In this document: piece after piece, positions 43,828-64,000 of the stretch
Numbering within the stretch: the stretch's first letter is position 1
Layout: every line of letters begins with the position of its first letter
Assembly: GCA_958009085.1 (NCBI GenBank)
Contig: OY253690.1
Location: 310,001-374,000, forward strand
Direction: 5' to 3'
From: Protoeuglena noctilucae
Lineage: Eukaryota
Length of the DNA stretch: 64,000 nucleotides
Notes under the pieces: model-generated
What the model was told of the DNA's origin: nothing
The model's input: only the letters and a program-made list of their open reading frames with translations
The model's database searches: none
Translations under genes and position numbers: made by a program

Positions 43828-43974
43828 CAGAGAGAGCAACGCGGCGCAAGGGATGAGGACTACCGGAGGAGGGGGGGGTTCTCGGGGTCGATATCCATCC
43901 TTGAAGGCGGCGAGGACACGCTAGTCGTCCACTGGTCAGGTGAGAAGAGAGCGATCCTCAAGGCATCCGCGAGC

Positions 43975-44174
43975 NNNNNNNNNNNNNNNNNNNNNNNNNN
44001 NNNNNNNNNNNNNNNNNNNNNNNNNNNNNNNNNNNNNNNNNNNNNNNNNNNNNNNNNNNNNNNNNNNNNNNNNNNNNNNNNNNNNNNNNNNNNNNNNNNN
44101 NNNNNNNNNNNNNNNNNNNNNNNNNNNNNNNNNNNNNNNNNNNNNNNNNNNNNNNNNNNNNNNNNNNNNNNNNN
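43975..44174. other. Assembly gap (200 N)
   Basis: Run of N. Confidence 1.
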
Positions 44175-44240
44175 TATCGACCCCGAGAACCCCCCCCTCC
44201 TCCGGTAGTCCTCATCCCTTGCGCCGCGTTGCTCTCTCTG

Positions 44241-46246: not shown

Positions 46247-46576
46247 CTAAACCCTATGTCCAGCGGCTTTAGTGATGTGGAAGCACTTGGTGATGATGTG
46301 AGCACGCGGATGTGCCCCCCCATGCCTGTGTTTCTACGTCGCGATGCATCCTTCAAGCTTATGTCGATCGTCAGTTGCTGCAGCCGTCCCTCGGGGCGCC
46401 TCTCGGGCACCCCTGCGATCCCCGTCTCGGTGCAGCCGTCCCCTTCCGAGGGCGCGGCTGGGTTTGCCCGAGTCATAGGTATGCGTATGCATAGCGGTAC
46501 TCTCCCAGCTGCCATCGCGGTCACAGGATGGGCGTGAAACCCGCGAAAGACGCGCCTCACTCGGAGGACTTAGATC

Positions 46577-46770
46577 GGGTTCCCGCCGGAACCCGACGGC
46601 CTGGAATCCGCTGGGGGGAGGGGGGGGCAGGTCCGAGGGGCGGGTTCCGGCGAACCCGCTCCGGAGACCAGGGTGAACCCGTGTGGAACCCGCCAGTAGG
46701 GTGGAACCCTGGGCCCCCCCGGGCAGGCGCGGGACCCGCCGCTCGTCGCGGGTTCCCCTCCGGAACCCGC
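46577..46770. repeat. Cluster of GGAACCCG/CGGGTTCC motifs in both orientations
   Basis: cgggttcc-cgcc-ggaacccg (46577), cgggttccggcgaacccg (46641), gtgaacccg, tggaacccg, tggaaccct and cgggttcc-cctcc-ggaacccg (46749). Confidence 0.7.
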
Positions 46771-49700
46771 CGGTGATTTTCGGGGCGCAAAAATTCGGGC
46801 GGCCGGCCGGGTTCGCGCGGGCCGCCCGGGAATTTCGGGCTCGATTCAAATGCGGTTCGAAATAAGGCCGATCGCGGGCCCCGCAGTGGGGCTCGCACGA
46901 CGGCGGGCGCACGGGCAAGCGCGGCAGGCGCACGGGCCGCCCGCGCCAGGCAGCAGCCCCACGACTTGGGCGTCGCAGCGCAGCGCCGCCACGCAGGCAA
47001 CAAGACACAGGCAGCAGGGCAGCGGCATCTCGCGTCACATCAAACGCACTCGACACAGAAATCGCAGCCCGGCGCACCAGCGCCCGGGCTGCCCTGGCGC
47101 TCAGCGCTGGTCTTAGGCCCCCCCACCCGCCCACCTGCACTCCTTGCAGCGGCACTCCTCCACCTCCCGGGCAGCCCTCGTCCGATCGCCAACGAGTAAG
47201 CTCGCGTCACTCTGCAGCGCGTCCGCCACCCGCTGACAACCTTGGTTCCCAGTTGCTGTGCACATGAACACGGGGACCGTCGTAGCTGTGGATGGATGTA
47301 CATGCTGTGCAGTGGCCCTCCCAGCGACAACACATCCAACATGCCCACCAGCCTGTTGCCAACACCAAGCCCAGCCCAGCCACAAACGCCCACCCATCAG
47401 CACACGTCAGGCGGCAGCAGCAGCCGCGCGTACGCCTACTGCACCCAGCCCCAAGCATGCAGCCCCAACTCCTGCTAGGCGACGGATGTCATGCAAAGCA
47501 GCATAGTGATGACGAGAAGCCAAGCGCCCTCCCCTGCAGCTACAGCACCTACAGCGACTCGACGCTCAGGACGAGCGCTCACCTCGCAGCCAATGACAAG
47601 CGCACGCCTTCCCCAGTGCTCTGCGGGCATCAAGGGAAAGCATTTCGGCCGAAGACAATGCGGACAACGGGTCTGTCAGTGCATCTCAGTGGCGTCAGCG
47701 CCCAAGCCACCGGCACTGCATCGCAAGGCCAGGCAAGACACACTCGGAGGCATGCTGAAGGCAACTACTCCGCACGCGCGTGCAGGACCGAGCTTGCTTA
47801 TGTTTGCTGATTGCCGGTTACCGCATACCACTATGGCACCCTCCTGACCTCGCATACATGTGGCGCAGCTGAGCGACACGCTAGCGCAGGCGCGTGGGCC
47901 ACACTCACCGGGTAAGCATCGTGTGGAGGAGTGCGAAATGAAGACGACCGAGATGACACGCAGCCAAGGCTCAGCCTCCGACAACTGCCGGCCTGCAGTC
48001 ACACCGAGCAAGAGGAGCGGTCACACCACCACGGCCGTGCACCTCGGGGAAAGACAAGGAGCATGTGGAAGGCAGCCGCGTTTCATGAACCAGCAAGCAA
48101 AGGCACGCCATCGCGCAGCATGTCAGCGTCTCTGTTGCGGCACCTGCCATGGCAGCTCCACAGGCGCACAAGAGCAGGACTGCCATACACGACAAGCGCG
48201 AAAGGCAGCGTCGGGCCTCGACATGCACTACAGAGAAAGGGACAAAGGCTTCCTGTGCGAACAACGGCAGGCACCACACTCACCTCTCGCACGCCGCTTG
48301 ACACCGGGGAGCGCCGTCTCCGAGGCCAGCACAGAGCAGGTCGACAGCACATGTGCCGCCACCTCTGCTCAGCCCTGCATGCAACGAGAAACAAGACGGT
48401 GTCGGAGGATGGAGCTCACGGCATGACAAGTGTCCTGCGTCCAGCACAGATTGCGTGACTGACACTCGACCGACACGGTGCAGGGCTGCTGCTGAGCCGA
48501 CCGTCTAACGGAGGACCATGACGCAAGGCCCATGGCGTGCCATCAGAGCATACACACAGCGTGCGCCACGACTGCATCAGAATCCCCCTGCAGCCACTGC
48601 GTCCTGGCATCGGCCACAGGCCCTGTGTCAGGCGGCCTCACCTGAGGCTTTCGACCGGCGTGACAAGCATTGGCTGAACAACAGACTCGTCTCCTGCGGG
48701 TGTGGCGCGGGCCCTGAGCGCGTCTTAGCCGCAATCGCCAGGCCAGCCCCGCCAGCAGCGGCGATGTAGTGCAAGATAGCCGCAATCTTACAGCGCAGTG
48801 CATTACTACAAGGAAGTTGAGGTCCATTTCAAGGAACAAGAGCGGCCATGATCGCTGATCGGGGCGCCGGCAAGCCGATGCCCAGAGCCAAACGTCCCTC
48901 GCGGCGATGTGGCTCACGGGACCTCGCTAATGACGCAGCTTGCAAAGGATTTAAGTCACCAGTAGCTTGGGGGCGGCGACATACCTCGCGCACGCCGAGA
49001 ACGGCCCCCGTGAGCCTCCAGAAGGGCACCCTGCACAAGCAGCGCGACGCGGCCGCCCCGAGGTGGGTTGGCGCCCGCTACCCAACGCTTAGTGATGCAT
49101 CTTACACTGGGAGTCACCGGATCCCCTCGTCTCACACGCCGGGAGCCGGGAGACACGAGCTGCGTTTGAACACGCCGCCCGCCCAAGAGGGCGGGAAGCA
49201 CGTTGTAAAGTACATGGCGCTCGAGCAACACCTGCAGAAGTAGATTGTGCGTCCTCAGGGGGGCGCGGCCGGGCCTTTGCGCGCCGCAAACGTCGCGCGC
49301 TGGCGCCCGATACGGGCGTCAGGGAACGTCAGGGGGCTTGCTTCCCCCCGAAGCCGAGAGACGACAGGATTGAGGCGTGGACAGCTTGACATTGTTGCAT
49401 AATAGCCTTGGTGTCTCCTGATTTTTCCCCTAAAGCCCTCCACGGCCCAGCAACATGGTCTAGGCCAAGGTGCAACCGCAGCCACTGAGACCGCTTCACA
49501 GCATTTCCCGACGAGTGCGGTCAGGAGACGACATTAAATATGTTCCTGCGAGTCAGGCGGCGGTGCCATCGGGCGCGTATCCTGCTGCCGGAGGGATGCG
49601 CACTTTGCGCGGCAACGTCTAGCCACAATAAGCTCCCGATGCGGCCCCTTTGTACCGCGATGACTGGAGAAATACGTGGATAATGCGCGAAGACCCAGCA

Positions 49701-50189
49701 TAAGCCCATCGCTGCCTCCATAGCGGCCCGCGAGCGCCCTTGGCATCCTGCGCTTGCAGCTGACTTTTCCAGCTCCCGGCGCATTTCTGTGACTTTACGC
49801 TGATCGATACGCGTGCTTCGCTTCCTAGTCCTGCGCTCTGCATCGGCGAAATCGACATCGGACCGCCGAGGTGGCGCCCGGGGTTGGCGCAAGCAGCAGT
49901 GGTGGGGTAAGACCAGCGCCAGCGCAAAACTTTTTTGGCCATTTGGAAAGCTAACGGCGAGACTCGAACTTTCGACGCCTGACGAAAAAGCCCTTTGAAA
50001 CGCGAACTGACAGCGCCGAAAACGCCAGAAAACAACGAAACGACGAAAATCGCCGTTCGAAAACGCGAAATTTCGAACAAGCGCTTCGCGGGACAGACAG
50101 CGGTCGGGGTCGAGGCCACGACCTGCCGACAGGCCACTCTGGAACGCGAAGGGGCATGCAAATTTCCGAACGACCCTCATCCGAATCGG

Positions 50190-50657
50190 ATGCTCCTGGC
50201 TGCGATCATGGGTGCCGCTCGTGACCGACCCGCCTCGATGCCCTTCCATCACCTCGAGCGGCACATCCTGGGGCAACTCGAGCAGAGGCCGCGCCACGGA
50301 TACACCATGGAGAGGGCGCGTGGGTTCCTCGCGTCGGAGCAGGGCCAGGCGTTCATGGCGTACGCGTACTGCCTCGACAGCTGGCACCGGTTCCGGCCCA
50401 TCGTGGACTACTGCAGGGGGGTGCGCATCCGGGAGTCCTTGGAGGATCGGGTGGGGCGCGATGGGGACGATGGGTTGGGGTGCATGCTGTGCCATGGAGA
50501 GATCGGTCCATCTCCCGCTGCATTCTTGCCCTGCGGGCACAGGGTCTGCTGCCGCAAGTGCAGGGATGATGTGTACCACTTGATCAAGGCCAGATGCCCG
50601 AAGTGCTGCCAGCGCATCTTCCAGTACGCCATCCGTGTGAAGAATTCACAGATGTAG
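50190..50657 (+). CDS. C3HC4 RING-finger protein (155 aa, intronless)
   Basis: CMLC...PCGHRVCCRKC...CPKC. Confidence 0.8.
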   Translation: MLLAAIMGAARDRPASMPFHHLERHILGQLEQRPRHGYTMERARGFLASEQGQAFMAYAYCLDSWHRFRPIVDYCRGVRIRESLEDRVGRDGDDGLGCMLCHGEIGPSPAAFLPCGHRVCCRKCRDDVYHLIKARCPKCCQRIFQYAIRVKNSQM

Positions 50658-50727
50658 GTGCCCACCCAGCACTAGGAACATAGCCGTGGCCCGGACCACC
50701 TCGAACGCCGCCCACTTCCAGTTGGCC

Positions 50728-51195
50728 TCAACCGCAGAGGCGAAAACACCCGGCCACCTTCTCGAACGCCTGCTCCGCCATGTCCTCCAGGTCCTCGGCC
50801 GACATCCGCTCGATGGCCCGGCGGGCGGCGGGGCCCACGGCCTTGGCCGCTCCCGCCTTCCTCAGCGAGTAGGCCAACCCGGCCGAGTCCCCGGCCCCGG
50901 CCTTGACGGCGTGGGCGAAGGCCGCGACGACCGCCTCGAGCTTCGAGAACGGCCGCAGGCCCCGCACCGCCCGGTGCTGGGACGCCGCCACGAAGGCGTC
51001 GTGGCGCGCGTCGAGTGGGCTCATGTCGTCGTCCGCCAGGGCGCCCAGGAGGCTCGCCAGCGCGGCCGCCCGGGTGTCCTTGTCGGCCGCGGCCCCATGG
51101 TACAGCTTGACCAGCTCGGCGAGGTAGCCGGCCGTCGGCTGGGTCAACTTGGGCGCCAGCTTTTCCTGCCAGTCGAGCGCGAGGAGGTCCGCCAT
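50728..51195 (-). CDS. Hypothetical helical protein (155 aa)
   Basis: ATG 51195 (MADLLALDWQEKL...), high GC3, part of the co-oriented viral gene array. Confidence 0.7.
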   Translation of the reverse strand: MADLLALDWQEKLAPKLTQPTAGYLAELVKLYHGAAADKDTRAAALASLLGALADDDMSPLDARHDAFVAASQHRAVRGLRPFSKLEAVVAAFAHAVKAGAGDSAGLAYSLRKAGAAKAVGPAARRAIERMSAEDLEDMAEQAFEKVAGCFRLCG

Positions 51196-51218
51196 GGTTG
51201 ATTCTTGACCGCCCCGTT

Positions 51219-51473
51219 TTATTTCTCGGCGACGGCGTGCCGGGCCGAGGCGGCGGCGATTAAATCCGCGAGCTTCCGCTGTCCCTCGTCCCGCGGCGCC
51301 TTGTACTCGACGGGGTACTTCTTGCCTGGACGCAGGGGTTTCCACAGCGAGAGCCCGCCCGGCTGGTAGGGCCCCCGCACGATCTGGGGGGTCTTGTCGA
51401 GGCGGTCCCGCTCCGAGAGCCGCGGCCACGACACGGCGCCGGTCACTTGGAGTCCGAGCGGCTGTCTCTGCAT
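51219..51473 (-). CDS. Hypothetical protein (84 aa)
   Basis: Fills the gap between neighbours. Preceded by the T-run motif also seen before the capsid and integrase genes. Confidence 0.6.
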   Translation of the reverse strand: MQRQPLGLQVTGAVSWPRLSERDRLDKTPQIVRGPYQPGGLSLWKPLRPGKKYPVEYKAPRDEGQRKLADLIAAASARHAVAEK

Positions 51474-51507
51474 GACCTCGGGGCGGGGAAAAAAAACGGA
51501 CGGGCGG

Positions 51508-52668
51508 TCACTCCGTCTGGGCCAGCTCGCCCGTCTCGGTGTCGATCGAGATGGACTTCGTCACCTCCAACGCCACGAGCAGCATCGAGGCGGCCGTGGT
51601 GCCGGCCACGTGGATGACCAGGGGCGAGGCGATGTCGTACGTCGACGTCCCGGACACCAGGTTCGTCGCGGCCGCCCCGGGGAGCTGCATGTTGTACACG
51701 CTCGCCCAGAACTCCGACCGCCAGTTGTTCGTCGTGACGTTCAGGCTCTGGATCCCGCCCACGCCGGAGGGACCGTCCTGGGCCAGCGCCATGTCCGTGG
51801 CGGTCCGGATCTCGTGCTTGGCCTCCTGGAGAGCCCACCCGTTCAGCAGCATGCCGCCGAGTTCGGCGTTGATGGTCCCGGCCGTCTCGAAGGTGCTCAG
51901 GTAGAACTTGCTGGTCGTGGTCTGGAACGCTGGGTCCACGCGGAAGGTGATGATCTTGTCCAGGCTCAGAGTCGCCTTCGTCATCGGAAAGTCGATGCTC
52001 GTCGTGAAGCTCGGCGAGACGAAGCTCGAGAAGTGCTTGAAGGGTAGCTTGAACTGCTTCACCGAACGCAGCGCCCGGCGGTACGTGTCCTGGGCGAATT
52101 GCACACAGTCCATGACCAGGTACGCGTTCGAGACGCCGGCCACCGTGCCGCCCGTCGCCGTGCCGATCACGTTGGGGTCCGCCAGCTGGAGCTGGAGCAC
52201 TGTGTTTCGGAAGAGCGAGAAGTCCATGTACCGGTTGTGGCTGCCGGACAGCGCCCCGTAGGCGAATCCCTGGACGACGGCGGGGCCGTTGAAGGCGTCG
52301 ACGGCGAATGTCTGCGGCAGCGCCGACTGGCGGTACGTGGGCCAGGTCAGCTGCTTGAGCTGGCTGACCACCTTCCCGTACCGCTGCAGCTGGGTGACCG
52401 AGTACCCGGAGACGGAGACGTCGACCTGCTGGATGATGGCGTCGGCCACGGGGATCGAGTACGCCGTCGTGCCGGCGTTCATCGAGAACTCGAAGTAGAT
52501 CTTCAGCGAGCGCAGGTCCGCGATCACGGGGGGGATGTTGAAGACGACCGACTCGCCGGCCGCCTTCACGCCGGACGCCGTCCACGGCACCCGGATCGTG
52601 GAGCGGCTGATGTCGTCCATCAGCCGCTGTGCCCGGAAGCTGAGGACCTTGGGGAGTGCGTCGGACAT
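51508..52668 (-). CDS. Putative double jelly-roll major capsid protein (386 aa)
   Basis: MSDALPKVLSF...GESVVFNIPPVIADLRSLKIYF...IIQQVDVSVSG...LQLQLAD...VTKSISID. Size, beta-rich pattern and context fit Polinton-like virus MCPs. Confidence 0.75.
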   Translation of the reverse strand: MSDALPKVLSFRAQRLMDDISRSTIRVPWTASGVKAAGESVVFNIPPVIADLRSLKIYFEFSMNAGTTAYSIPVADAIIQQVDVSVSGYSVTQLQRYGKVVSQLKQLTWPTYRQSALPQTFAVDAFNGPAVVQGFAYGALSGSHNRYMDFSLFRNTVLQLQLADPNVIGTATGGTVAGVSNAYLVMDCVQFAQDTYRRALRSVKQFKLPFKHFSSFVSPSFTTSIDFPMTKATLSLDKIITFRVDPAFQTTTSKFYLSTFETAGTINAELGGMLLNGWALQEAKHEIRTATDMALAQDGPSGVGGIQSLNVTTNNWRSEFWASVYNMQLPGAAATNLVSGTSTYDIASPLVIHVAGTTAASMLLVALEVTKSISIDTETGELAQTE

Positions 52669-52711
52669 GGGCTTCTGCCGGTCCGGCAGAGAAAAAAAGC
52701 GGTGCGACGCG

Positions 52712-53686
52712 TCATTCCTTGGCCCGTTTGATCTCGTCACGCCGCAGCAGCCGGCGCGTCCCGGAGACCCGGTAGCTCCCGCCATCCACCTGCTTGACGA
52801 CCCGCGGCGTGACGTCCCAGACCCCCTTCGACCGCTTCGACAGCGGCCCCTGCGCGCTCGGGAGCATGACGAGCACGCGGTCGCCCTCGCGGATCGGGTT
52901 CTCCTCGGGGGGCCCTGGCTCGCCGACCCTGCGGTAGGCGCGCAAGATCCGGAGCTCCTCCCCTTGCGCCGCCCTCTGCCAGGTCTTCCCCCACATGGGC
53001 GCGTCGGCCGCCTCGTTCGGCGGCATGCCCGTCGTCGCGTTGTCCCGCTTGTTGTACGCCGTGACGACGTCCGCGAACACCTCCCTCCACGTAGGGTTCT
53101 GCTTCAGCTTCTGGCGCCGCGCCATGACGTGGGCGGTCTTCGTCCGCAGCACTCGGATCATGGCCTCGACCTGCGGCGCGTGCTGCTGGACGATCAGGCG
53201 GATGCCCCGCTCCTTCAGGAACGCCCGCCCCTCGTTCGACGACCACGCCCCCTCGCCGTCCGCGATGATGCAGTCCCACTTGTGTCCCTCGTCCAGGATC
53301 TTGCCCAGCCCCTTCAGCACCTGGTCCCTCTCCTTGGACTGCAGGTCCTCGTAGTACAGCTTGCGGCTGAGGCCGTCGACGACCAGCAGCAGGTACTTGG
53401 AAGCCGCGCCCTTCGTGAAGACCTTGTTCAGGCCCAGGTCCTCGTTGGTCCTCGCGAAGTCGATCAGGTCCATCGACGCCTCGCGGCCGCCGTAGCGGGC
53501 GGGGATGATCCTGCGCGTGGGGGCGTCGGGCTTGTCGAACGGGGTGTCGGTCTTGGCGAGGTGCGCCTCGACGTCCTGCGCGGTCACGTTCCCGTTCAGC
53601 CTCTTCTTCGCTTCCACCAGGAGCTGCTTCTGGCCAGTGACCCCCTCGTCCTGCAGCTTGTTCAGGACCTCCTCGATGCTGGTCAT
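52712..53686 (-). CDS. Retroviral-type (rve) DDE integrase, Polinton/Maverick-like (324 aa)
   Basis: SMDLIDF, KYLLLVVDGLSRK, IIADGEG, QVEAMIRVL, WREVFADVVTAYNKRDNATTGMPP and IREGDRVLV. Confidence 0.92.
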   Translation of the reverse strand: MTSIEEVLNKLQDEGVTGQKQLLVEAKKRLNGNVTAQDVEAHLAKTDTPFDKPDAPTRRIIPARYGGREASMDLIDFARTNEDLGLNKVFTKGAASKYLLLVVDGLSRKLYYEDLQSKERDQVLKGLGKILDEGHKWDCIIADGEGAWSSNEGRAFLKERGIRLIVQQHAPQVEAMIRVLRTKTAHVMARRQKLKQNPTWREVFADVVTAYNKRDNATTGMPPNEAADAPMWGKTWQRAAQGEELRILRAYRRVGEPGPPEENPIREGDRVLVMLPSAQGPLSKRSKGVWDVTPRVVKQVDGGSYRVSGTRRLLRRDEIKRAKE

Positions 53687-53739
53687 CCGTGTCTCTTCAA
53701 GGGAGCGCAGAGAAAAAGGGGGGTTTGTCTACACAGCGC

Positions 53740-56700
53740 CTAGGACTTCTTCTGCAGCGCACCGAAGGGCGCGTTGCACCCGCGGCACGCCGGGCGCAGG
53801 TCGGTCTGGCTCGGGTCGTGGGCGGCCTGGTCGTCGATGCGGTCGAGCTCGAGCAGGGCGATGTCCGTGCACCCGCACGCCAGGCACCGGAAGCCGTGGC
53901 GCTTGAAGAGCTCGTGGATCTCCGACGCCGTGACGCCGCGTCCGGGGCGCCCCGCGTCCTTGTCCTGCTGGTTCAGCCGCTTAGCCATGGCGTCGAAGTG
54001 CTTGTGGAAGCCCCCGCTGACCTCGGCGTGGTCGATGGCGATCCGGAGCTGGTCCAGGTCCTTGCACCGCGTGATGGCCGTCCACACGAGGCGGTCATTG
54101 TTTGGCCAGTCGGCGCTCCAAGCGAGCACGATGTCCTTCTCGATCGTCGACCCCTGGAGCGCGTGGCTCGTGTAGCCCCCCTCGATGCGGAAGTTGCGCC
54201 GCACCTCTTCCATGCTGCGGAACGTGACCTCGACATCGTCCTCGGCCGCGAACGTCACCTGCCCGGACTCGTCGACGTCGGTGATCTCGTACGTCTCGTT
54301 CATGATGAAACTGCTGAAGCGCTTGGTATCCCCCTTGAACACCCACCTCCCCCCGGTTTGCGCCGCGTCCTTGTCCCTCCGGTTGACGGCGTGGCACGCG
54401 TACGCGTTGCTGGCGGCCACGACGATCTCCTTGGCGGTGTCGATGTTGGCGACCGTGCATGTCGGGATCCCAAACTTCTTGGCGAACGTGACGGGGTCCA
54501 GGGTCTGGCCCGAGTCGATGTGATCCTTCATGGCGAGGAGCTTGGCGTGCTGCTGCTTCGGCAGTCGCTTCATGACCAGGAGGAGGCACTGGACGGGGAA
54601 GAGCTGACGCACCGCGTCCTCGTATAGCGCGTCGTTGTGGGCGTCGTCGATGGGCTTGTTCTGGCGCGGGTCGCCCGTCGCGATGAAGCGGATCTCCGGG
54701 TGCTCCTCTATGTCCCGCTTCAGCACCTCCAGCACGGGCAGCGGCATCATGTAGATCTCGTCGATCATGACGGCCTTGAGCCCCTCGATCTTGTACCCGG
54801 GCCGGCGGACCTTCTGGTCGAAGACGCGCTGGCCGAACCACTTGGTGGCCGTGTACGTACGCCACCCGGCCTTCCGGTGCCCCTTCAGCAGCATGTGGGT
54901 GGGGGCCACGACCACCGACTCCTCGGGCTTCAGGTTCTTGAGGGCCGTCCACGTCTTGCCGCTCCCGGGCAGGTCCGAGACGATGGCGATACGGTGGTGG
55001 GCCGAGAGGTCGATGCCCGCCTTTTCCTCGTCTGCCGTGAACGTGAGCCGCTGGACGGGGCTCGGCGCCGGCGCCGCCATCTGGTACAGCCGGGTCGCCG
55101 TCGGGTCCATCGTGTAGCTCTTCGACAGGAGCTGCTGGCGCTTCGTGGGCCAGATGCCGTGGGGGGTCGCCGCCCGCCGCGTGGGGGGCTTGAAGGACCC
55201 GATGTCGCGGACGGACGGGTGGGGGTCATCCGGCTCTGTCACGGGCTCCATCGTGGGCGTCGCGGGCGGCGGCTGGACGGGCACCGCGATCCACGGCGTC
55301 CGGGTGAGCATGTCTGGGTCGGCGATGAACTCGTCGCCCGGCTCGGTGCAATCGTCGTCGTCGTCCTCGTCGGCCTCCGCTGCCCCGCCCATGTCGAGGG
55401 GGAGGTCTCGCACGTACAGCTCGTCGACATTGACCCCGAGGACCCCGTAGGCCTGGAGGTCGAAGGCCTTCTCCGCGAGCAGGGTCTGGGCCATGCAATA
55501 GACGGCGTCCTGGACCAGCGTCCACCCGTTGTTCGCCGGGACGCTCTTGTGGAACGCCATCAGCGTCCACCTCTTGTCGACCTGGGTCTTGTCGCCGCTG
55601 AGGAGGTCCTCCAGCATCAGCTGGCCCAGCTTGGGCATTTCTGCCCGCTTGCCCTTGGCGGCGTGCCCGACCTTGACGACGTGGCCCCCGTCCTTGGCGT
55701 GGTCGCGGGCGGCATACGCCTGCCGCGGGACCGTGCAGAGGAAGCCCTTGGTGACCTTCGACGCCTTGCGCCCCGACGTCCCGATGGCGGCGTTGACCAT
55801 GTGCTTCTTCTGCCCGTCGGTCAGCCCGTCGCTCGTGAGGACGGCGTCGACGTGGCGGCGGGCGCGGAGCACGAGCGTCTCCTTCGGGCACAGCTCTACC
55901 ACGGGCGTGGCGGTCTCGCCCGTCTTGTCCCTCCAACGCTTGAGCTGCCACCCCATCTTGCGGCTGACCTTCCCGCGCCAGAACAGCTTCCCGTGTGGCG
56001 TGTCGAGGTGCTCGAGCGGGACGTCGACGATGTAGGCGGTGTCCTCGAGGATCTCCGCGTCGGGCTGCACGAGCGTGGGGAGGCAGAAGGTCGACAGCAC
56101 CATGACGGGCAGGGGCTCGCGGAGGATGGACGTGTAGAAGCGACGGATGTCCAGCGCGTAGAAGCGGTCGGGGATCTCGTCTACGAGCTCGATCCGAGCG
56201 GCGGGGACGGGCTGGGCCGCGTCGACGACGTTGAAGAGCATCGCGCCGGCTGCCTCGCACCACTCTGAGTAGGCCCTCGGTGGGCACACCGCCTTGAGCA
56301 GTCGCGTGTTGAGCTCCTCGTACAGGTACCCGTTCTCGGCGCCCTTGAGCTGGAGGGCGTCCTCGAACACCTCGTCGCTCCTCTCCGGCAGCGTCACCGT
56401 CACGCGGGCGCGCTCCTTGCGGTCGTCGCCGACGGCGTACTGGATCCACCACGTGAAGCCCGTCACCCGCTCGCCCTTGTGGTGTACCTCGAGGACCTGG
56501 TGACCCAGCTCCCGCAGGCGGTGAATCATGGCCATCAGGTGCTCGAACGACGGGCACAGGTAGCGGCCCGGCGCCTTGACGGCGAGGAGCTCCTCGGCGG
56601 TCTCGAGGCGGCCGTGGAGGATCGAAGCCCCCCGCGGAGGCGCGATGGCCCGAGGCGGCTCGGGGAGCACCGACTCGGGGACCGTCCGCAGTGGCACCAC

Positions 56701-58228
56701 CTTGTCGCCCTGGACGCGGAAGCGGCGGGCCACGCTCATGCGGACGACGGGCCACGCGTGGTTGTCGTGCACGAGGATGACGACCATCCTGGGGGCGGCC
56801 CTGTCCGACTTCTCCGACATCGTCACCTTGACCTTGCCCCGCTTCGTGCACGTCATGGACACCGTCACGGCCTTGCGCACGCCCGAGTCGAGGACGAGGC
56901 CGCTCCACGCCTCGACGACGGCCACGTTGCAGACGCCCTGGAACGCGGGCACGATCTTGTCCCCCGGGATGGCCTTGCCCTTGAGCGTCTCGAGGACGGC
57001 GAGGTACTCCGTGTGCCGCTCCTCGCACTGCATCCTGGCCGCCTCGTAGACGCACCCCTCCGACGGGCACGCCTTGGCCACGGGCGGTTTCTCCACGTCG
57101 TATGGGGTCAGCTCGCAGTTGAGCCACGACTTGTCGGGGTCCGCGACGACCATGTTGCGGAGCCCGAAGCCCACGTACCACGGCCCGATGGCCTCGATCC
57201 TGATGCACGCGCCGTCCGAGCTCGACCCCGAGTCGTGGTGCTTGTAGCGGTCCAGCCGCTCGAGCAGGTCGGGCGCCACCGTCTTGAGCGTCGTCGACAG
57301 CTCGGACGACGTCTCGGCCTCGAAGGCGGGCTGGTCGGCCTCGTCGGTCGGGACGGGAGATCTTGTACACGTGGCCGACCTGGAGCCCCAGCTCCTCGAT
57401 GCGTTTGGTCACGGGCACCTCGGCCGCCCCCGACTTCCACCGCCACGCGCACAGGTGCTCGCCGTCGACGACAAGGAGCTCGACCGTCTCGATGTTCCTG
57501 TCGACGACCTGCATCCAGTCCTGTCGCATCAGGGCCGCCGCGTTCTTGTGTCCGAGCGCCTCGCGGAGCTCCTCCGTCGTCTGGGGGTTGCCGAGGACCG
57601 CGTACGCCGTGGCGTCGCCCCGCCGCCCCGAGACCACGTGGGCGTCGAGGTTGACGAACCCGTAGACCTGGAAGCCCACGCCGCGGATCTTCGACTCCGT
57701 CTCGGCCCGCGCCCGCGCCCGCTTCGCCGACTCGAGCTCGAGGACCACGTAGCGACCCGGCCCCTTGCGGTTGACCGTGTAGCCGGCGGGGAGCTCGAGG
57801 ACGGCCTTGGCCTCGTCGAGCGTCTGGGGGTCGGCCTGGCGGAGCGCCGCGTTGGCGCCGCGGACGTCGAGGGGCTGCCGCGCCTCGTCGCCCTTGCGGT
57901 AGAAGACGGGCCCCTGCTCTTGCGGCTGGTCCGGCTCGTGGGCCTGGATCCTCCCCCCCTCGAAGACCTGCCGCGCCTGCTCCTGGAAGCGCTCGACGCG
58001 CTTCTCGCGGACGGTCGGCTTCCGCACGCGCCACGGCGCGCCGTCGCCTTCTCGAGCCACCGTGTAGCCCTCGGGCAGGCCGTCCGGAAAGCGCGCGAGG
58101 ACGGCCTCCCGCGTCGTGTCGGGTGGCAAGCGCTCGAGGTCCCGGTTGATCGTGTCGAGCGATCGGGATTCGACCTGGCCGATCGTCCGGCCGGTCACGC
58201 GCTGGAATCTCGTCGACGGCTTGGGCAT
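53740..58228 (-). CDS. Replication polyprotein: N-terminal domain, vOTU-like protease, divergent family B polymerase, SF1 helicase and HNH-like domain; one frameshift near 57356
   Basis: GCVYEAA...ILVHDNHAW; ALDIRRFYTSIL, KKHMVNAAIGTSG, GVNVDELYV; DLPGSGKT, MIDEIY, GDPRQNKP, TSHALQGSTI, WTAITR; CLACGC...LDRIDDQAAH...ACRGCN. Confidence 0.85.
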
Positions 58229-58476
58229 GGCTCCTCGACCTCAACTCCACGCAATGCGTTGATTTTCTGCGCTACAGCGAGGGCCGAAAATTCTCGCGGG
58301 GGCCGGCCGCGGGGCACGGGGCCCACCACGCCCTCCCCGAGCATCTCGCGCGCCCGCTTCCGGAGGCGGTACAGCCGCTGCGCCACGCGCTTGTACTCGT
58401 CCCGCCCCGCCTCGCCGGCCTGCCGCATCAGGGCGGCCTCCAGGTGGAGGAAGGCGCCGAGCGTTAGCGTCAGCAT
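58195..58476 (-). CDS. Small basic hypothetical protein with an AT-hook-like PRGRP
   Basis: YRLRKRARE...PRGRPPR. Overlaps the polymerase start by 34 nt. Confidence 0.5.
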   Translation of the reverse strand: MLTLTLGAFLHLEAALMRQAGEAGRDEYKRVAQRLYRLRKRAREMLGEGVVGPVPRGRPPREFSALAVAQKINALRGVEVEEPCPSRRRDSSA

Positions 58477-58548
58477 GTCGTTCGTCTCACCAGATACACG
58501 TTGTCTTGGAAAAAAGAACTCGTTCGCCGGGGGCGCCTTTTCCGGGGT

Positions 58549-59061
58549 TCACCAGTCGCCGTACGCGGTCCGGATGTACAGCCGGGGGTCGTCGCGCCGG
58601 GCGGCCTCCTGCAGGCGGTGGATCACCTTGGGGCGGTCCTCCGGGGCGGCCTCTGCGTACACCGGGTCCTCGCGGATCGCGGGGACCTTGCGCTCCCGGA
58701 TCGCCGCGAGCCGGGCCCGGGCCTCCGTCAGCCGCTTCTCGACGTCGTGCTCGCGCGCCCTCACCTCGAGCTCTCGGGCCTCCAGCTCGTTTTTAAGCAC
58801 GTTAAGCTCCGCGATGGTGACGTTTCGAGACTGTTCCGACAGAGCCTTCCGGACCGTCGACGGGGGCGGCCCTGACCCCGACTGAGCCTTCTTCGCCGCC
58901 AGCGCCTCGCGGGCCTTCGCCGCTCGCTCGCGCATGAGCGCCAACTGGGCCGCGTCCCGCTTCGGCTCGTCGGTTGGCTCGGGGGCCGCGGCGTCGTCAG
59001 AAACATCTGGCGTTTCAGGCTCGGGCGCGGGGGCCGGGGGCGCTGACTTCTTTATCGCCAT
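58549..59061 (-). CDS. Coiled-coil hypothetical protein (170 aa)
   Basis: AQLALMRERAAKAREALAAKK and a heptad-rich ELEARELEVRAREHDVEKRL. Confidence 0.7.
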   Translation of the reverse strand: MAIKKSAPPAPAPEPETPDVSDDAAAPEPTDEPKRDAAQLALMRERAAKAREALAAKKAQSGSGPPPSTVRKALSEQSRNVTIAELNVLKNELEARELEVRAREHDVEKRLTEARARLAAIRERKVPAIREDPVYAEAAPEDRPKVIHRLQEAARRDDPRLYIRTAYGDW

Positions 59062-59079
59062 CTGTCCCTGACTTAGAAT

Positions 59080-59472
59080 TTAATCCAGGAACACCTCCCG
59101 GATCGTCAACAAGATGATCGTGTCGGCCGTCCGGTTCGCGGCGACCCCGTCGACGTCGACGAAGCTCAGCGTCAGCGTCGTGCCCCCAGTGAAGCGGCAG
59201 ATGTACGGGAGGGTCGGCCTGGTGATCTGGCCCCCCGCGATGACCCTCCGCCCGCCCCCGGTCCGCAGGTCGTTGCTCACGTTGGGCACCAGGTCGTAGC
59301 TGACGAGCAGGTCCGTGGCCCGGGTGTCCCCGACGACCGTCTCGATGATGACCTGCAGCTGGCTCCGGCGCGCCTCGAAGCGGCTCACGGGGTCGTACGG
59401 AAGGACGCACGCGTTCGAGCCGCTCGGGACGTACCCGGCGTAGCTGTAGGTAGCGATGGGGCCGCCGTCCAT
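59080..59472 (-). CDS. Small beta-rich protein, possible minor capsid (penton)-like (130 aa)
   Basis: C-terminal LTLSFVDVDG...IILLTIRE pattern resembles jelly-roll minor capsid termini. Supported by context. Confidence 0.5.
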   Translation of the reverse strand: MDGGPIATYSYAGYVPSGSNACVLPYDPVSRFEARRSQLQVIIETVVGDTRATDLLVSYDLVPNVSNDLRTGGGRRVIAGGQITRPTLPYICRFTGGTTLTLSFVDVDGVAANRTADTIILLTIREVFLD

Positions 59473-59495
59473 TTTCCCTGGCGCTAGAGAATAAG

Positions 59496-62400
59496 ATGGC
59501 GGCGTGGAACGGCGTCTACGCGCGCCAGCTGGTCGTCGACGACGCGGGCGCCGCGGACGGCGACTACTTCAAGTACCAGGCCGCCACGCGCAAGCTCGTC
59601 ACCGACAAGGGCGCGCTCTCCGGGCGCGTGATGGCCCTCGAGACGGCCATGTCGACCGTGGGCTCGAGCGGCGGGACGGTGACGCAGGGCCCCGCGGGGA
59701 CCGTCGCAGTGGGCTCCGTGACGACGGGCTCGAGCGCCAGCGTGACGAACTCCGGGACCCCCACCAGCGCAGTGCTGGACTTCGTGCTGCCCCGCGGCGC
59801 TCCAGGCGCCTCGGCGACGATCGCCGTCAGCTCGACGACGACGTACGGGAACGCGGCCACGCCGGTGGCCGTGGTCAACGCGGGCACGCCGCAGGCGGCC
59901 GAGCTCCAGTTCACCTTCCCGGACCTGAACGCGCTCGTCAACCCGGACGAGTCGGTGCAGGCGTACCACGACCAGCTCGTCACGGACCTGAACGTGCAGA
60001 TCAACGAGAGTTTCTTCGGCCCGATCTGGGACGCCATCCCCGGGTCCGAGACGCTCCCGCAGAACATGACGGACGGCGAGCTCATCTCGGCCATCCAGGC
60101 GGTGCGGCTGGCCAACTACTTGTACGGGAAGCTGAAGGGGATGCTCAACGCCCGCAAGGAGCTCGAGGCGCAGATGTCGGCTTTGTCGGAGTTCTTCGTC
60201 AAGTTCGACGCCCCGCCCGGGGCCTTCGCCCTCTTCAAAGGGTACCAGACGGGCACGTGCGACGGCGCCTTCTACTGGCAGCGGACCCAGCGCTTCCAGG
60301 ACCCCGTCGCCCCGCTCCGCTGCCTGGCCGACAACGGCGACGTCCTCGTCGAGATGACGAAGCAGCCGAGCTACAGCTTCTCGCTGTACGGTCCCCCCCT
60401 CGAGCTCGCCTCCACGCAGGCCGGCGCCAGCTCCAGCTACACCAGCCTCAGCCACCCCGCGACGCTCCGGACGACGGGCGACACGGTGACGGTGAAGTCG
60501 GCGGCGGGGCAGCTCCTCGTGACGGACACGGGCGTCGTGGCGAGCGACAAGCTGACCGTGTCGGGGGCTTCCCCCAGCCTGGTGGTGGCGGGCGCGGACC
60601 AGGCCCCGCTGCTGACGGCGTCGGCGACGGCGGCCACGTCGACCGTCGAGAGCCTCGTGCCGCTCACGATCAAGTCGACGGCGTCGCCGACGCTGACCGT
60701 CGCGAGCGAGGACCCCCTCGTCGACCCGCTGCTGAAGGTGGCGGCCACGGACGGGGTGAACTCCCTGTCGCTCAGCTCGAGCGCCGTGGCGGGCTACATC
60801 GAGTCGTCGAACGACCTGTCCGTCAAGTGCGGCGGGACCGTCGTCATGACGGCGGGGCCCACGGGCGTCAGCATGCTGGGGTCCACGCTCAGCACCGAGG
60901 AGACGACGATGATCATCCACTCGGCGGACGCCGACTGCGTCAGCTTCACGCCGACCGAGACGGTCTTCTCGGCCGCGCCGATCGTGTGCCAGTCGGCGTA
61001 CTACGTCTCGGTCGACCCCGCCAGCAAGCTGGTGACCCAGGCCCAGCTCGACGAGCAGAAGGCCAAGACGAGCACGACGACGGGCTCGGACGTCGCGTCG
61101 TCGGCCGCCAACCTGGGCGGCGACCTCGGCACGCTCTTCGGCTCGAGCTTCGACTCGCTCGGGGCCGCCGCCGTCGGCGCCATGGGGGGCGCCATGGCGG
61201 CCGTGGGGCTCAGCATCCGCAGCGGCACGGACCCGGGGACGGGGGCCACCACGTACCAGGTGGTCCAGCAGCCCGTGTCGGGCGGCATCGCCGTCGAGCG
61301 CATCCTGATGTTCGACACGAACCCGCTGGCCCCCTCGCTCGTGTACGTCATGGACGCCACGGGCCTGGACTGGGCGTACGTCAAGAACGTTCCGGCCGCC
61401 ATCGCGGGGTACACGGGGACGATCGCGGAGTCGCAGGTCACCGGGCTGGTCGCGGACCTCGCGGCCAAGCTCGACGCCTCCACGGGGGTGATAGCGCAGA
61501 GCCAGGTGACGGGCCTCACGTCCGCATTAGCCGGCAAGCTCGACGCGGCAACGGGCACGATCGCGGAGTCGCAGGTCACGGGACTGGTCGCGGACCTGGC
61601 CTCCAAGCTCGACGCCTCCACGGGGACCATCGCCCAGAGCCAGGTCACGGGGCTGACGGCCGCCTTGGCGGGGTACACGGGGACGATCGCGGAGTCGCAG
61701 GTCACCGGGCTTGTCGCGGACCTGGCCTCCAAGCTCGACGCCTCCACGGGGACCATTGCCCAGAGCCAGGTCACGGGGCTGACGGCCGCCTTGGCCGGCA
61801 AGCTCGACGCGGCCACGGGCACGATCGCGGAGTCGCAGGTGACGGGGTTGACGAGCGATCTCCAGGGCATCAACAGCCAGCTAGCCAGCCTGGGGGCCAG
61901 CTCGGCGGGCGTGGGGGTCAGCAAGCTGGACGTCGAGACGGTCACGACGAACGGAGCGACGCTGAGCCTGACGAAGTCGAGCTACTTCGCGCCCGGTATC
62001 GTCACGCCCACGGGCTTCTTCCCCGGCGTGCACGGGTTCGCCATGACCTACCCCGCGAACCTGGCCCAAAACAACGGGGGCCAGATCAACGCCTCGGCCG
62101 TCGACGCATCGGGCAACTTGTATGTGTGCGTGTACACCGCGATGGGCTCCTCGACGACGACGAACTACATCAAGAGCCTCAACGGGGACACGAGCCTCCA
62201 GGTCGCGGTGAACGACGCCAACTCTTCGGGCGCCGCGCCGTACGTGGCCAAGTTCGACCCGACCGGCACCCTCTTGTGGGCGTGGAAGCCCCTCGACAAC
62301 CACTCGACCGTCTCCTCGAACAACGCCACATGCGTCGGCGTGGAGGTGCAGTCCAACGGGCACATCCAGTATGTCTTCAGCCTCCACTTCGGGGACTTCG

Positions 62401-64000
62401 ACTCGTTCAACCCGGACGGGACTCTTCGGACGTCCGGCTTCGTCAGCGACCGATGCATCGATTACGTGCAGCTCACCGTGAATAGCGCGGGGGCCATCGT
62501 GTCCTTCACCACGCCGGTCTCGACGAACGTCGGGGCGGCCACGGGATACAACGCCTGGTTCCCCGAGACGATGGCGTGGAACGGCAAGACCCTCATGAGC
62601 ATCACCACGGCGTGGGGACCCAACGCGTACACGACCTCGCCCACCCGGCTCTACTTCGGCAACACGGGGCCAATCGGCTACTACAACGCCGCCTTCGTGT
62701 ACCTGAACGATGACGCCGTCGCCATGATGGCCAACCCGATCCAGCTCACGGCGTCGAGCGAGCAGCTCGAGGTGGCCGGGATGACCACCGACTCGTCCAA
62801 CAACCTCTTCGTCAGCCTGCTGTACTACGGCGGCGGGGGCTCCCGCACCATCAACAACCTCTCGAGCAACTCGTCCTCTGGGCACACCGTCACCCTCCCG
62901 GCCGCGTGGTGCAACGTCGTCCTCTGGTACAATTCGTCCGGCGTGTACGTGGGCACGCCGCTCATGATCACCACCAACGCGAACGCCATGCTCGACATCG
63001 AGTGCGACGGCTCCGGAAACATCTACGGCTATTGGGCCACGTCGGACGCGAGCGTCACCGTCGGCGGCGTCACCGCCACCAGCAAGTACACGCCGTCCGG
63101 GTGGCTGGTCAAGTTCACGCCGACGGGCACCGTGAGCAAGCTCGCCTCGTGCATCGACGCCTCCGCCCTGAGCAGCACGTGGTTGGACTACAACCGGCGG
63201 CTCATGTTCGACGCCACCAACGGCCTCATGTTCCTCTGCCTCCAATGGGGCGGGACGGCGACGGGGACGGCCCTCACCAACCTCGACGGCTCCGCGAGCT
63301 CCGTCGTGAGCCCCAACCGTCCCGGCGGGACCGGCGCGAGCATCTTCGCCCTCAACTGCTCCACCGACAAGTGGGTTTTCGCCTTCACGCCGCTCGGGGT
63401 GGCGACCGGCCACCTCACGTCCGTGTACCAGAGCTACCGCGCGGCCCACGGCAAGCTCCTCGTCAACGGCTACGTCTCGACGGACCAGACGTCCTTGCAG
63501 GTGTACAACGGAGACAAGACGTCCACCACCTCCCTCACGACGGACTCGGCCGCGTACGGCAACTCGACGTACCAGCCCCTCCTCCTCGCCTACTCGTACA
63601 ACGCCACGCCCATGTCGGCCACGCTCCCGCTCCCGTCGCCGTCGTCGGGCAACTTCCTCGAGAAGACGCTGATCATGCAGCCGGGGCTGTCGTACGTGCT
63701 GACGGAGCAGAACAACGCGGGCGACAACACCCGGACCATCCCCACGGCGGCGACGGGCCTCACGGTCGTCCAGTACTACTACGCCGGCGACGCGTGGAGC
63801 CCCGACTTCTCCACCGTCGACCTCGTCAACACCGTCGTCTACGACAGCTCCTCCACCACCACAACCGTCTCCAACACGGACGCCGCCACGCTCAACGGCC
63901 TCGCCTCGAGCCAGTTCGTGAGGTCCGACGTGGCGTCGGGCGTGTCGTGCGCCTCGTCGACCCGGGCCTTCGCCGTAAACAACCAGGCGGGCGGTTTCCA
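59496..64000 (+). CDS. Giant fibre/receptor-binding-like protein (>1500 aa, open at the window end)
   Basis: ATG 59496 (MAAWNGVYARQLVVDD...) with no stop to 64000. Contains VAVGSVTTGSSASVTNSGTPTSAVLDFVLPRG, 7x IA(E/Q)SQVTGL repeats, AVDASGNLYV/TDSSNNLFV/CDGSGNIY blades and DAATLNGLASSQFVRSD. Confidence 0.85.
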   Translation, partial: MAAWNGVYARQLVVDDAGAADGDYFKYQAATRKLVTDKGALSGRVMALETAMSTVGSSGGTVTQGPAGTVAVGSVTTGSSASVTNSGTPTSAVLDFVLPRGAPGASATIAVSSTTTYGNAATPVAVVNAGTPQAAELQFTFPDLNALVNPDESVQAYHDQLVTDLNVQINESFFGPIWDAIPGSETLPQNMTDGELISAIQAVRLANYLYGKLKGMLNARKELEAQMSALSEFFVKFDAPPGAFALFKGYQTGTCDGAFYWQRTQRFQDPVAPLRCLADNGDVLVEMTKQPSYSFSLYGPPLELASTQAGASSSYTSLSHPATLRTTGDTVTVKSAAGQLLVTDTGVVASDKLTVSGASPSLVVAGADQAPLLTASATAATSTVESLVPLTIKSTASPTLTVASEDPLVDPLLKVAATDGVNSLSLSSSAVAGYIESSNDLSVKCGGTVVMTAGPTGVSMLGSTLSTEETTMIIHSADADCVSFTPTETVFSAAPIVCQSAYYVSVDPASKLVTQAQLDEQKAKTSTTTGSDVASSAANLGGDLGTLFGSSFDSLGAAAVGAMGGAMAAVGLSIRSGTDPGTGATTYQVVQQPVSGGIAVERILMFDTNPLAPSLVYVMDATGLDWAYVKNVPAAIAGYTGTIAESQVTGLVADLAAKLDASTGVIAQSQVTGLTSALAGKLDAATGTIAESQVTGLVADLASKLDASTGTIAQSQVTGLTAALAGYTGTIAESQVTGLVADLASKLDASTGTIAQSQVTGLTAALAGKLDAATGTIAESQVTGLTSDLQGINSQLASLGASSAGVGVSKLDVETVTTNGATLSLTKSSYFAPGIVTPTGFFPGVHGFAMTYPANLAQNNGGQINASAVDASGNLYVCVYTAMGSSTTTNYIKSLNGDTSLQVAVNDANSSGAAPYVAKFDPTGTLLWAWKPLDNHSTVSSNNATCVGVEVQSNGHIQYVFSLHFGDFDSFNPDGTLRTSGFVSDRCIDYVQLTVNSAGAIVSFTTPVSTNVGAATGYNAWFPETMAWNGKTLMSITTAWGPNAYTTSPTRLYFGNTGPIGYYNAAFVYLNDDAVAMMANPIQLTASSEQLEVAGMTTDSSNNLFVSLLYYGGGGSRTINNLSSNSSSGHTVTLPAAWCNVVLWYNSSGVYVGTPLMITTNANAMLDIECDGSGNIYGYWATSDASVTVGGVTATSKYTPSGWLVKFTPTGTVSKLASCIDASALSSTWLDYNRRLMFDATNGLMFLCLQWGGTATGTALTNLDGSASSVVSPNRPGGTGASIFALNCSTDKWVFAFTPLGVATGHLTSVYQSYRAAHGKLLVNGYVSTDQTSLQVYNGDKTSTTSLTTDSAAYGNSTYQPLLLAYSYNATPMSATLPLPSPSSGNFLEKTLIMQPGLSYVLTEQNNAGDNTRTIPTAATGLTVVQYYYAGDAWSPDFSTVDLVNTVVYDSSSTTTTVSNTDAATLNGLASSQFVRSDVASGVSCASSTRAFAVNNQAGGF
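61410..61862 (+). repeat. Coding tandem repeat, 7 units (mostly 69 nt / 23 aa, one 57 nt)
   Basis: TGTIAESQVTGLVADLASKLDAS alternating with TGTIAQSQVTGLTAALAGKLDAA. Confidence 0.9.

Follow-up and report, generated by a model that had tools for sequence, protein, structure and literature searches.

The closest described systems to the element reported here are Tlr1 of Tetrahymena thermophila and the Polinton-like viruses (PLVs) that carry Tlr1-like helicases. As described in PMC11161782, Tlr1-like helicases are organised as terminal protein (TP), vOTU, palm and superfamily 1 helicase (TP-vOTU-PALM-S1H), are widespread in PLVs, and lack one aspartate of motif C while retaining motifs A and B. 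Tlr1 carries an RVE integrase, and in some cases the TP is naturally split from the vOTU and the protein-primed DNA polymerase of family B (pPolB) (PMC11161782). Endogenous PLVs of protists have been described as 15-30 kb elements that encode a major capsid protein (MCP), either a polymerase or a primase-helicase, and an integrase of the rve or tyrosine type, in hosts that include Chlorophyta, and some of them are expressed (Bellas et al. 2023, PMC10120064). The subject of the present analysis is a stretch of 64,000 nucleotides (nt) of Protoeuglena noctilucae, assembly GCA_958009085.1, contig OY253690.1, positions 310,001 to 374,000 of the forward strand, referred to as the window. Its right-hand part is probably the left 14 kb of an endogenous PLV, transcribed but probably decaying, that resides in the nuclear genome of a marine photosynthetic eukaryote of the green lineage with GC-rich DNA.

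The element shares with Tlr1 and the PLVs with Tlr1-like helicases a putative RVE-type integrase, a replicase with vOTU-like motifs, a probable palm and a C-terminal superfamily 1 (SF1) helicase but no exonuclease signal, a predicted double jelly-roll capsid protein, and probable integration in a protist genome. It differs from Tlr1 in its green-lineage host and in the reading-frame change of its replicase, and the likeness considered here is that of gene layout. The nuclease motif that follows the helicase is HNH-like here and GIY-YIG in Tlr1 and some Cryptomonas PLVs (PMC12721341); HNH units are mostly fused to other domains in published accounts, and the HNH-like tail may be a minor variation. 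An earlier note on this DNA had described the gene set as unusual, a description that falls away because an rve integrase together with a pPolB-palm/SF1 fusion is the set already described for Tlr1-type PLVs (PMC11161782, PMC12721341). Polintons/Mavericks also share a putative rve integrase, protein-primed family B motifs and a predicted double jelly-roll capsid with the element, which is unlike strict Polintons in its fused helicase, in showing no exonuclease signal and, in the part within the window, no protease or ATPase match, and in a small capsid protein closest in fold to giant-virus and PLV-type capsids. OmPLV of Oxyrrhis marina is likewise endogenous, with a length of about 25 kb and an SF1 helicase-pPolB fusion of about 1,500 amino acids (aa) that is often pseudogenised; in OmPLV, however, the helicase is N-terminal, the exonuclease and polymerase are complete and there is no RVE integrase, whereas here the probable palm precedes the helicase and a putative rve integrase is present (PMC12721341). 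The genes that carry this comparison are the following (GC3 is the G+C fraction at third codon positions).

51508..52668, minus strand: predicted major capsid protein, 386 aa, double jelly-roll, from AlphaFold2 (AF2), Foldseek and VIA
52712..53686, minus strand: putative DDE integrase of the rve superfamily, 324 aa, from NCBIfam and Pfam
53740..57408, minus strand: replicase frame B, read from stop to stop, 1,222 aa, with vOTU-like motifs, palm motifs, SF1 helicase and HNH-like motif
57339..58228, minus strand: replicase frame A, N-terminal part of about 290 aa from the ATG at 58228, GC3 0.95
57339..57408, minus strand: single +1 reading-frame change from frame A to frame B, from a three-frame reading and the switch of GC3 phase

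The capsid protein belongs to a family that no curated library names. It matched nothing in Pfam, PHROG or NCBIfam and no sequence in PDB, where a hit to PrgI at E 1.1 is noise. A word-index search (7,253 candidates) found two relatives, P0001 (99% identity) and P0002 (64%), by which the start codon was fixed, and a profile of these two and the window protein, searched over 1.84 billion representatives, gave 87 proteins at E ≤ 0.001, mostly of about 400 aa (nine at ≤ 1e-10 and five at ≤ 1e-30). The alignment for modelling comprised 53 rows, of which 51 came from the 87 profile matches and the other two were P0002 and the protein of the window itself, with P0001 omitted as a near-duplicate and a further 35 rows omitted as fragments, much longer proteins or multi-piece matches. 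One of the 53 rows touches Pfam Capsid_N (E 0.0035), and the profile touches the capsid protein MCPv4 of Paramecium bursaria chlorella virus 1 (PBCV-1) in PDB (E 0.011). From this alignment AF2 produced a model with pLDDT 91.1 and pTM 0.88; a model from a three-row alignment (pLDDT 33.9) was discarded. Foldseek gave 188 PDB matches to the model at E ≤ 0.001, headed by the capsids of Singapore grouper iridovirus (SGIV) and PBCV-1 (E about 1e-15, probability 1.0, TMq 0.65-0.68), and the best match in BFVD was an unnamed viral protein (E 8.4e-27, TMq 0.81). VIA Z scores were 25.6 for faustovirus (347 of 386 residues aligned), 25.5 for PBCV-1 and 24.3 for SGIV, followed by 20.2 for Sputnik, 19.5 for mavirus, about 16 for PRD1 P3 and 13.5-14.5 for adenovirus hexon. 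The product had been called capsid-like with a double jelly-roll expected, the lack of such a fold having been named in advance as grounds for rejection; the model has the fold, and on its evidence the 386-aa product is a double jelly-roll capsid protein.

These matches also bear on another origin, in which the DNA would be a piece of an endogenised giant virus (Nucleocytoviricota) and not of a PLV: the best structural matches are the capsids of faustovirus, PBCV-1, SGIV and African swine fever virus (Z 23-26), and the profile match in PDB is again to PBCV-1. The capsid protein is merely 386 aa long, however, an rve integrase with a pPolB-palm/SF1 fusion marks PLVs and Polintons (PMC11161782), and no giant-virus core gene was matched in the window. 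The chance of a giant-virus origin is therefore considered slight in the extreme.

The large gene had been interpreted as a PolB-helicase fusion, which it probably is, and the one frameshift noted earlier is confirmed in this gene. Its C-terminal 519 aa match two Pfam families above their cutoffs, AAA_30 with 27.4 bits (27 required) and Viral_helicase1 with 24.4 bits (21 required), at residues 100-256, and PHROG places a Dda-like helicase on the replicase and an endonuclease VII on its last 70 residues. Among the 30 ESM Atlas clusters nearest to the 703-aa stretch upstream of the helicase, 15 lie in the PF03175 (DNA_pol_B_2) set, with a top score of 0.93 (188 of 256 features shared), and several of the PF03175 clusters are viral (Preplasmiviricota). 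Searches of PDB sequences gave nothing for the replicase, and the word-index search among proteins of 672-2,139 aa returned only the window's own 1,179-aa replicase form, with no full-length relative. Within frame B the following motif-like strings and linker were picked out.

Residue 65, minus strand: DGAC
Residue 216, minus strand: NHAW
Residue 420, minus strand: DIRRFYTS
Residue 535, minus strand: KHMVNAAIG
Residue about 660, minus strand: NVDELYV
Between NVDELYV and GSGKT, minus strand: acidic linker, from the order of motifs
Residue 815, minus strand: GSGKT
Residue 880, minus strand: VMIDE
Residues 1175-1211, minus strand: CxxC..H..CxxC, HNH-like

We take DGAC and NHAW, upstream of the palm, to be the candidate catalytic cysteine and histidine of a vOTU domain, and the strings at 420, 535 and about 660 are presumably palm motifs A, B and C of a pPolB. 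The spacing between the vOTU-like and palm motifs, about 200 aa, is short for an exonuclease domain, and Pfam gave no exonuclease family match in the replicase. Frame A, in which neither Pfam nor NCBIfam matched a family, occupies the position of the terminal-protein region in related replicases, and the motif order vOTU-palm-S1H agrees with the published order (PMC11161782). As judged from motifs and their order, the gene appears to match the PLV replicase layout TP–vOTU–pPolB palm–SF1 helicase, with a C-terminal HNH-like motif in addition.

The frame change was followed in public reads. The window's sequence occurs in 14 of the 24 listed runs (12 with at least half of its words; six are RNA; four studies), comprising runs labelled as a single organism (0.94-0.99 of words) and marine metagenomes, and contigs of two DNA runs (X1, X4) and two RNA runs (X8, X9, two samples of one study) were placed on positions 45000-64000. 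Frame A keeps its GC3 of 0.95 as far as about 57360, and the frames meet at 57339-57408, between the N-terminal region and the vOTU motifs. None of the contigs from X1, X4, X8 and X9 shows an indel difference there or elsewhere over 45000-64000, and since the RNA is also colinear over 53601/53681-58266, the frame change is present in the DNA and RNA of all four runs.

The integrase gave family signals from two profiles, so that the DDE integrase of the earlier note is retained as a candidate: NCBIfam IS481 transposase at E 2.8e-7, with residues 5-225 on positions 64-282 of 284, and Pfam rve at E 0.0043, both scoring below their curated cutoffs. IS481 transposases belong to the same DDE superfamily as rve. 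Candidate residues found by eye are D (MDLID), D (IIADGEG) and E (PQVEA), together with a GDxV...W SH3-like tail; the word-index homologue search and the PDB sequence search gave nothing. The signals are weak but consistent, and suggest an rve/IS481-type DDE enzyme. In an intact element, this enzyme would insert the linear genome, the replicase would prime on its own N-terminal domain, which the vOTU would cleave, and would copy the DNA as the helicase unwinds it, while capsid trimers, vertex proteins and fibres would make up the particle.

From 50190 to the window end, ten open reading frames (ORFs) form an array that is 97.6% coding, with successive inter-ORF gaps of 70, 23, 34, 43, 53, -34 (an overlap), 72, 18 and 23 nt. 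The abrupt switch to a compact array recorded earlier is confirmed by these gaps (18-72 nt, the overlap apart) and by the split eukaryotic genes to the left. The GC content of 60-71% gives rise to long chance ORFs on both strands of the window, and it is by the high GC3 in their called frames that the array ORFs are told apart from these: values are 0.84-0.97 throughout, and they narrow to 0.95-0.97 in the capsid, integrase and fibre genes, in the 130-aa ORF and in each of the two replicase frames. A sliding GC3 phase plot tracks the called frames and shows one phase change, in the large gene at about 57340-57430.

Contigs of the read runs move the left edge from 50190, where it had been set, to near 49893-50047. 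The segment concerned is as follows.

49893..50153, no strand assigned: AT-richer segment of about 260 bp, probable left edge, repeated elsewhere in the same organism

Some contigs of X4 and X8 follow the window from 49893/49895 to the right and carry other sequence to the left, and one RNA contig departs from the window again at 50153, from which it follows that the segment is a repeat. Double-depth DNA contigs begin at 50001 (X1) and 50047 (X4). The segment may be either a terminal repeat of the element or a dispersed repeat that has nothing to do with it (a miniature inverted-repeat transposable element or SINE-like sequence); it has no second copy inside the 64-kb window and no tRNA or Rfam match. 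ARAGORN and Rfam searches returned neither a tRNA nor any credible RNA family; a pair of Rfam rows at E 0.3-0.7 was disregarded. The segment also lies within an X8 RNA contig of depth 90.9, in which a 53-nt stretch is swapped for 13 other letters. On the right, a double-depth DNA contig extends 8,011 nt past 64000, which puts the full length of the element at about 22 kb or more.

To the left of the element, Pfam identified split eukaryotic genes (PP2C, GAPDH, ClpP, SRP68, four GT61 copies and a MULE transposase); in all, 14 of 126 scanned ORFs had a Pfam match, one of them the RING ORF of the element. Among solved structures the host GAPDH is closest to chloroplast GAPDH-A (E 4e-116), which makes a photosynthetic green-lineage host reasonable. 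The earlier claim of a virus-derived element joined to eukaryotic DNA is supported. The sequence is gap-free from 44175 to 64000, with a spliced GT61 gene about 4 kb left of the element (an RNA-supported GT..AG intron lies at 45089-45181); the depth of the element's middle in X4 (15.7) equals that of the unique flank (15.0/14.5); and contigs of 71.8 and 102.4 kb in other assemblies carry the element's proteins, while the 64% identical capsid protein P0002 is on a contig of 529 kb. Integration is also favoured by the splicing of element transcripts and by the GC3 of host GAPDH, ClpP and PP2C, 0.91-0.98, which equals that of the element.

In an alternative reading the junction would have arisen during assembly, when the genome of a free or episomal virus was joined to algal DNA via the 260-bp repeat; the window may itself derive from a metagenome. 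The join between flank and element does run through this segment, which has other flanks in X4 and X8, so a short-read misjoin is possible. A scaffold gap of 200 N (43975-44174) lies 6 kb left of the element, flanked by a 2.1-kb inverted duplication of 99.4% identity (41758-43893 versus 44175-46310) with a GT61 gene in each arm, which is either a true palindrome or a scaffolding artefact. Against such a misjoin stand the equal depths of element and unique flank in X4, the shared codon use and the splicing of element transcripts at canonical sites, the long contigs of other assemblies, and the fraction of the stretch's words present in the runs labelled as a single organism. An artefact at the junction is accordingly judged very unlikely, and integration in nuclear DNA is the preferred reading.

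The host part has further repeats. A direct segmental duplication of 4.4 kb (98.1% identity; 10570-14944 and 38752-43136) contains an SRP68 fragment and a GT61 gene, GT61 is further represented at 24279-25412 and at 45173-46243 by copies with 94-96% identity across about 0.5-1.4 kb, and a Mutator-like transposon occupies 32480-34927, where a SWIM zinc finger comes after a MULE transposase domain (E 2.5e-9).

Read depth and contig joints fit two copies of the element, in one of which the 7.3-kb middle is missing or replaced. A DNA joint 53237->60565 is found in both X1 (depth 78.8) and X4 (depth 10.7). In X4 the left part of the element (50047-53238, depth 29.1) and the right part (30.3) are at twice the depth of the middle (53209-60594), which is at the level of the unique flank. 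In line with this there is a 149-aa integrase remnant, which begins at a methionine just after the candidate catalytic glutamate and is without the catalytic core. Ten contigs, the longest of 71.8 kb, carry this remnant, and 11, the longest of 102.4 kb, carry the complete 324-aa protein. Separately, X1 contigs match 54849-56929 (replicase) and 61307-61865 (fibre repeats) and then diverge from the window, a hint of further diverged copies or repeat-number variants in that organism.

Four splice joints, all GT..AG, were found in RNA contigs within the element, two on the minus strand and two on the plus strand, and the description of the array as intronless is contradicted by them. The introns are these.

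58267..58490, minus strand: replicase leader intron, 224 nt, GTGAG..CAG, joint 58266->58491 in X8 and X9 RNA contigs
58653..58764, minus strand: replicase leader intron, 112 nt, GTGAG..CAG, within the 170-aa ORF, joint 58652->58765 in X8 and X9 RNA contigs
51187-51335, plus strand: first intron of an antisense transcript, GT..AG, RNA joint in X8 and X9
51661-51744, plus strand: second intron of the same transcript, GT..AG, RNA joint in X8 and X9

The RNA contigs with the leader joints have depths of 36.3 and 47.2, and the joints are not reported in the DNA runs. In each of the two samples a 4.9-kb RNA contig carries both leader joints and is colinear with the window over 53601/53681-58266. The leader introns interrupt the 93-aa and 170-aa ORFs, although the GC3 of either ORF is that of coding sequence, and the 224-nt intron removes most of the 93-aa ORF. 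The 5' end of the contigs lies near 58930, and from there to the replicase ATG at 58228 the spliced leader is free of ATGs. The replicase gene is thus transcribed in sea-water metatranscriptomes, and its AUG is the first in the part of the mRNA that is seen. The unspliced leader has three ATGs, all within the 224-nt intron, where the background of the strand is about eight ATGs per kb; that splicing clears upstream ATGs from the replicase leader is suggestive, not strong. The introns have no other copy in the window and no sign of introner-like repeats. Endogenous PLVs are called intron-free in PMC10120064, where genes were found with a prokaryotic caller, in contrast to the four RNA joints seen here. 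A narrow search of the PLV literature, covering papers without their supplements, found group I introns only and no spliceosomal processing of PLV transcripts.

The plus-strand RNA spans 50640-52137 in two metatranscriptome samples and lies antisense to three element genes, namely the minus-strand 155-aa ORF, the 84-aa ORF and, at its 3' end, the capsid gene. Possibly it continues the RING mRNA, and it might regulate or silence the capsid gene. The RNA contigs do not span the capsid, integrase and fibre genes completely, and missing cover is not the same as silence. Two odd joints are confined to X9 (57722->58095, with 29 other letters between, and 60634->57705); a diverged copy or chimeric contigs could account for them.

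Could the element be an intact, latent and inducible virus? The frame change would then be a programmed +1 ribosomal shift, or a deliberate split, that tunes the ratio of N-terminal product to full replicase, the leader that splicing frees of ATGs would serve expression specifically, and the shorter copy would be a defective derivative. In keeping with this, the change falls exactly at the boundary of the N-terminal region and vOTU, where natural TP splits are reported (PMC11161782), it is free of indel differences in two DNA and two RNA runs, all other ORFs are open with GC3 of 0.84-0.97, and replicase mRNA is present in two metatranscriptome samples with all three upstream ATGs dropped by leader splicing. 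On the other hand, the old frame has no slow or stop codon at the shift site, no full-length replicase relative was found among the proteins of 672-2,139 aa searched, the first AUG of frame B is downstream of the candidate catalytic cysteine, the RNA contigs listed over the capsid gene have the antisense splice only, and a fixed frameshift in a single full copy equally resembles an old inactivating mutation. A latent inducible virus is thus regarded as unlikely, although less so than the alternatives discussed above, and the suggestion of the earlier note that the element may be recent or inducible is weakened, given the frame change in all four runs and a second copy with its middle missing or replaced and its integrase truncated. 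It is probably a resident provirus, transcribed but decaying, and not a proven inducible virus.

It is conceivable, though doubtful, that the element represents a marine green-algal PLV lineage that expresses its replicase in the manner of animal nuclear DNA viruses, with AUG-free leaders made by the host spliceosome from upstream coding genes and with recoding at the TP/vOTU boundary that would set product ratios, the provirus being alive in wild populations of 2016-2025, either latent or acting against giant viruses. Endogenous PLVs are now considered common in protists and may guard against giant viruses, and few have evidence of expression in nature. The present locus adds a concrete example from a picoeukaryote that is marine and photosynthetic, and its RNA is direct evidence for the processing of PLV transcripts by the host's spliceosome; a full and a shortened copy stand side by side, so that decay and activity can be compared, and the replicase appears to be of Tlr1 type with an HNH-like tail. 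The picture of what PLVs are is unchanged: the element is of a known kind, and its points of interest are the splicing of the replicase leader and a frame change that is fixed where two domains meet.

Several results weigh against an endogenous, expressed PLV, in addition to the repeat at the join and the gapped inverted duplication nearby. The integrase scores 30.4 bits with IS481 against a curated cutoff of 224, and 17.7 bits with rve against 32.6. Pfam matched neither the polymerase nor the vOTU or HNH parts, which were identified from Atlas features, one PHROG match (E 0.0016) and motifs found by eye. As had been stated earlier, no packaging ATPase (FtsK/A32 type) or separate maturation protease (Ulp1 type, present in Polintons and variable in PLVs) is visible within the window, no such family being matched in the element's part of it in Pfam, PHROG or NCBIfam; because the element continues for at least 8 kb past the window, this says nothing about the whole element. 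Terminal inverted repeats and a target-site duplication, of 5-6 bp in Polintons/Mavericks, were not seen, and the right end lies outside the window. No relative was found when a viral contig collection was scanned with alignment A1, P0015 and P0003, no related DNA when genome contigs were scanned with alignment A1, and no match when metagenome contigs were scanned with the fibre C-terminus and a 29-nt exact left-repeat pattern. Both RNA runs come from one study, their contigs give neither strand nor level, and the only RNA contigs listed over the capsid gene bear the antisense splice. Finally, a penton was a guess for the 130-aa ORF from its size, strand content and position beside the fibre gene, and it is unsupported.

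The remaining genes of the array are as follows.

50190..50657, plus strand: RING finger protein, 155 aa, with a C-terminal RING (Pfam zf-C3HC4_3, E 1e-6, 28.9 bits, cutoff 27), GC3 0.84
50728..51195, minus strand: 155-aa ORF, GC3 0.95, exact protein on 23 contigs
51219..51473, minus strand: 84-aa ORF, GC3 0.87, exact protein on 17 contigs
58195..58476, minus strand: 93-aa ORF, GC3 0.98-1.0 in frame, exact protein on 24 contigs
58549..59061, minus strand: 170-aa ORF rich in Ala, Lys and Glu, GC3 0.87 (0.96-0.98 in the C-terminal half), exact protein on 13 contigs
59080..59472, minus strand: 130-aa strand-rich ORF, penton candidate from Atlas neighbours, GC3 0.96
59496..64000, plus strand: fibre-like protein, 1,501 aa or more with the frame still open at 64000, GC3 0.97, from PHROG

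The RING ORF lies inside the double-depth contig 50001-53238. The 155-aa minus-strand ORF matched no family above noise in Pfam, PHROG or NCBIfam, and Pfam gave no match for the 84-aa, 93-aa and 130-aa ORFs. Atlas neighbours of the 130-aa ORF (Atlas model pTM 0.60) carry no family name, one cluster being mostly Preplasmiviricota (TM 0.62); these weak neighbours are what remains of the penton-like protein proposed earlier. The fibre-like protein matched PHROG 21765 (E 6.8e-13) and 18412 (E 1.1e-9) and has 23-aa tandem repeats encoded at 61393-61853 (nucleotide period 69/126). It had no PDB sequence match, and tblastn of residues 1-835 against 50,697 phage records gave none, so that the label phage-like, which the two PHROG matches might have suggested, is not sustained. 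Weak Pfam matches to CDV3, Glutaredoxin, Phage_TAC_15, Egh16, NepR and DUF5816 were dismissed as noise.

A T-run motif of the form TTTTT(TT)CTCTGC recurs in three spacers of the array (repeat family D6).

51483-51500, minus strand: T-run motif
52686-52703, minus strand: T-run motif
53707-53724, minus strand: T-run motif

The pattern occurs five times on the minus strand of the window, three of these being in the spacers listed. It may be either a promoter or a 3'-end signal; the replicase RNA contigs stop 60-140 nt past the replicase stop codon, just past one of the T-run motifs.

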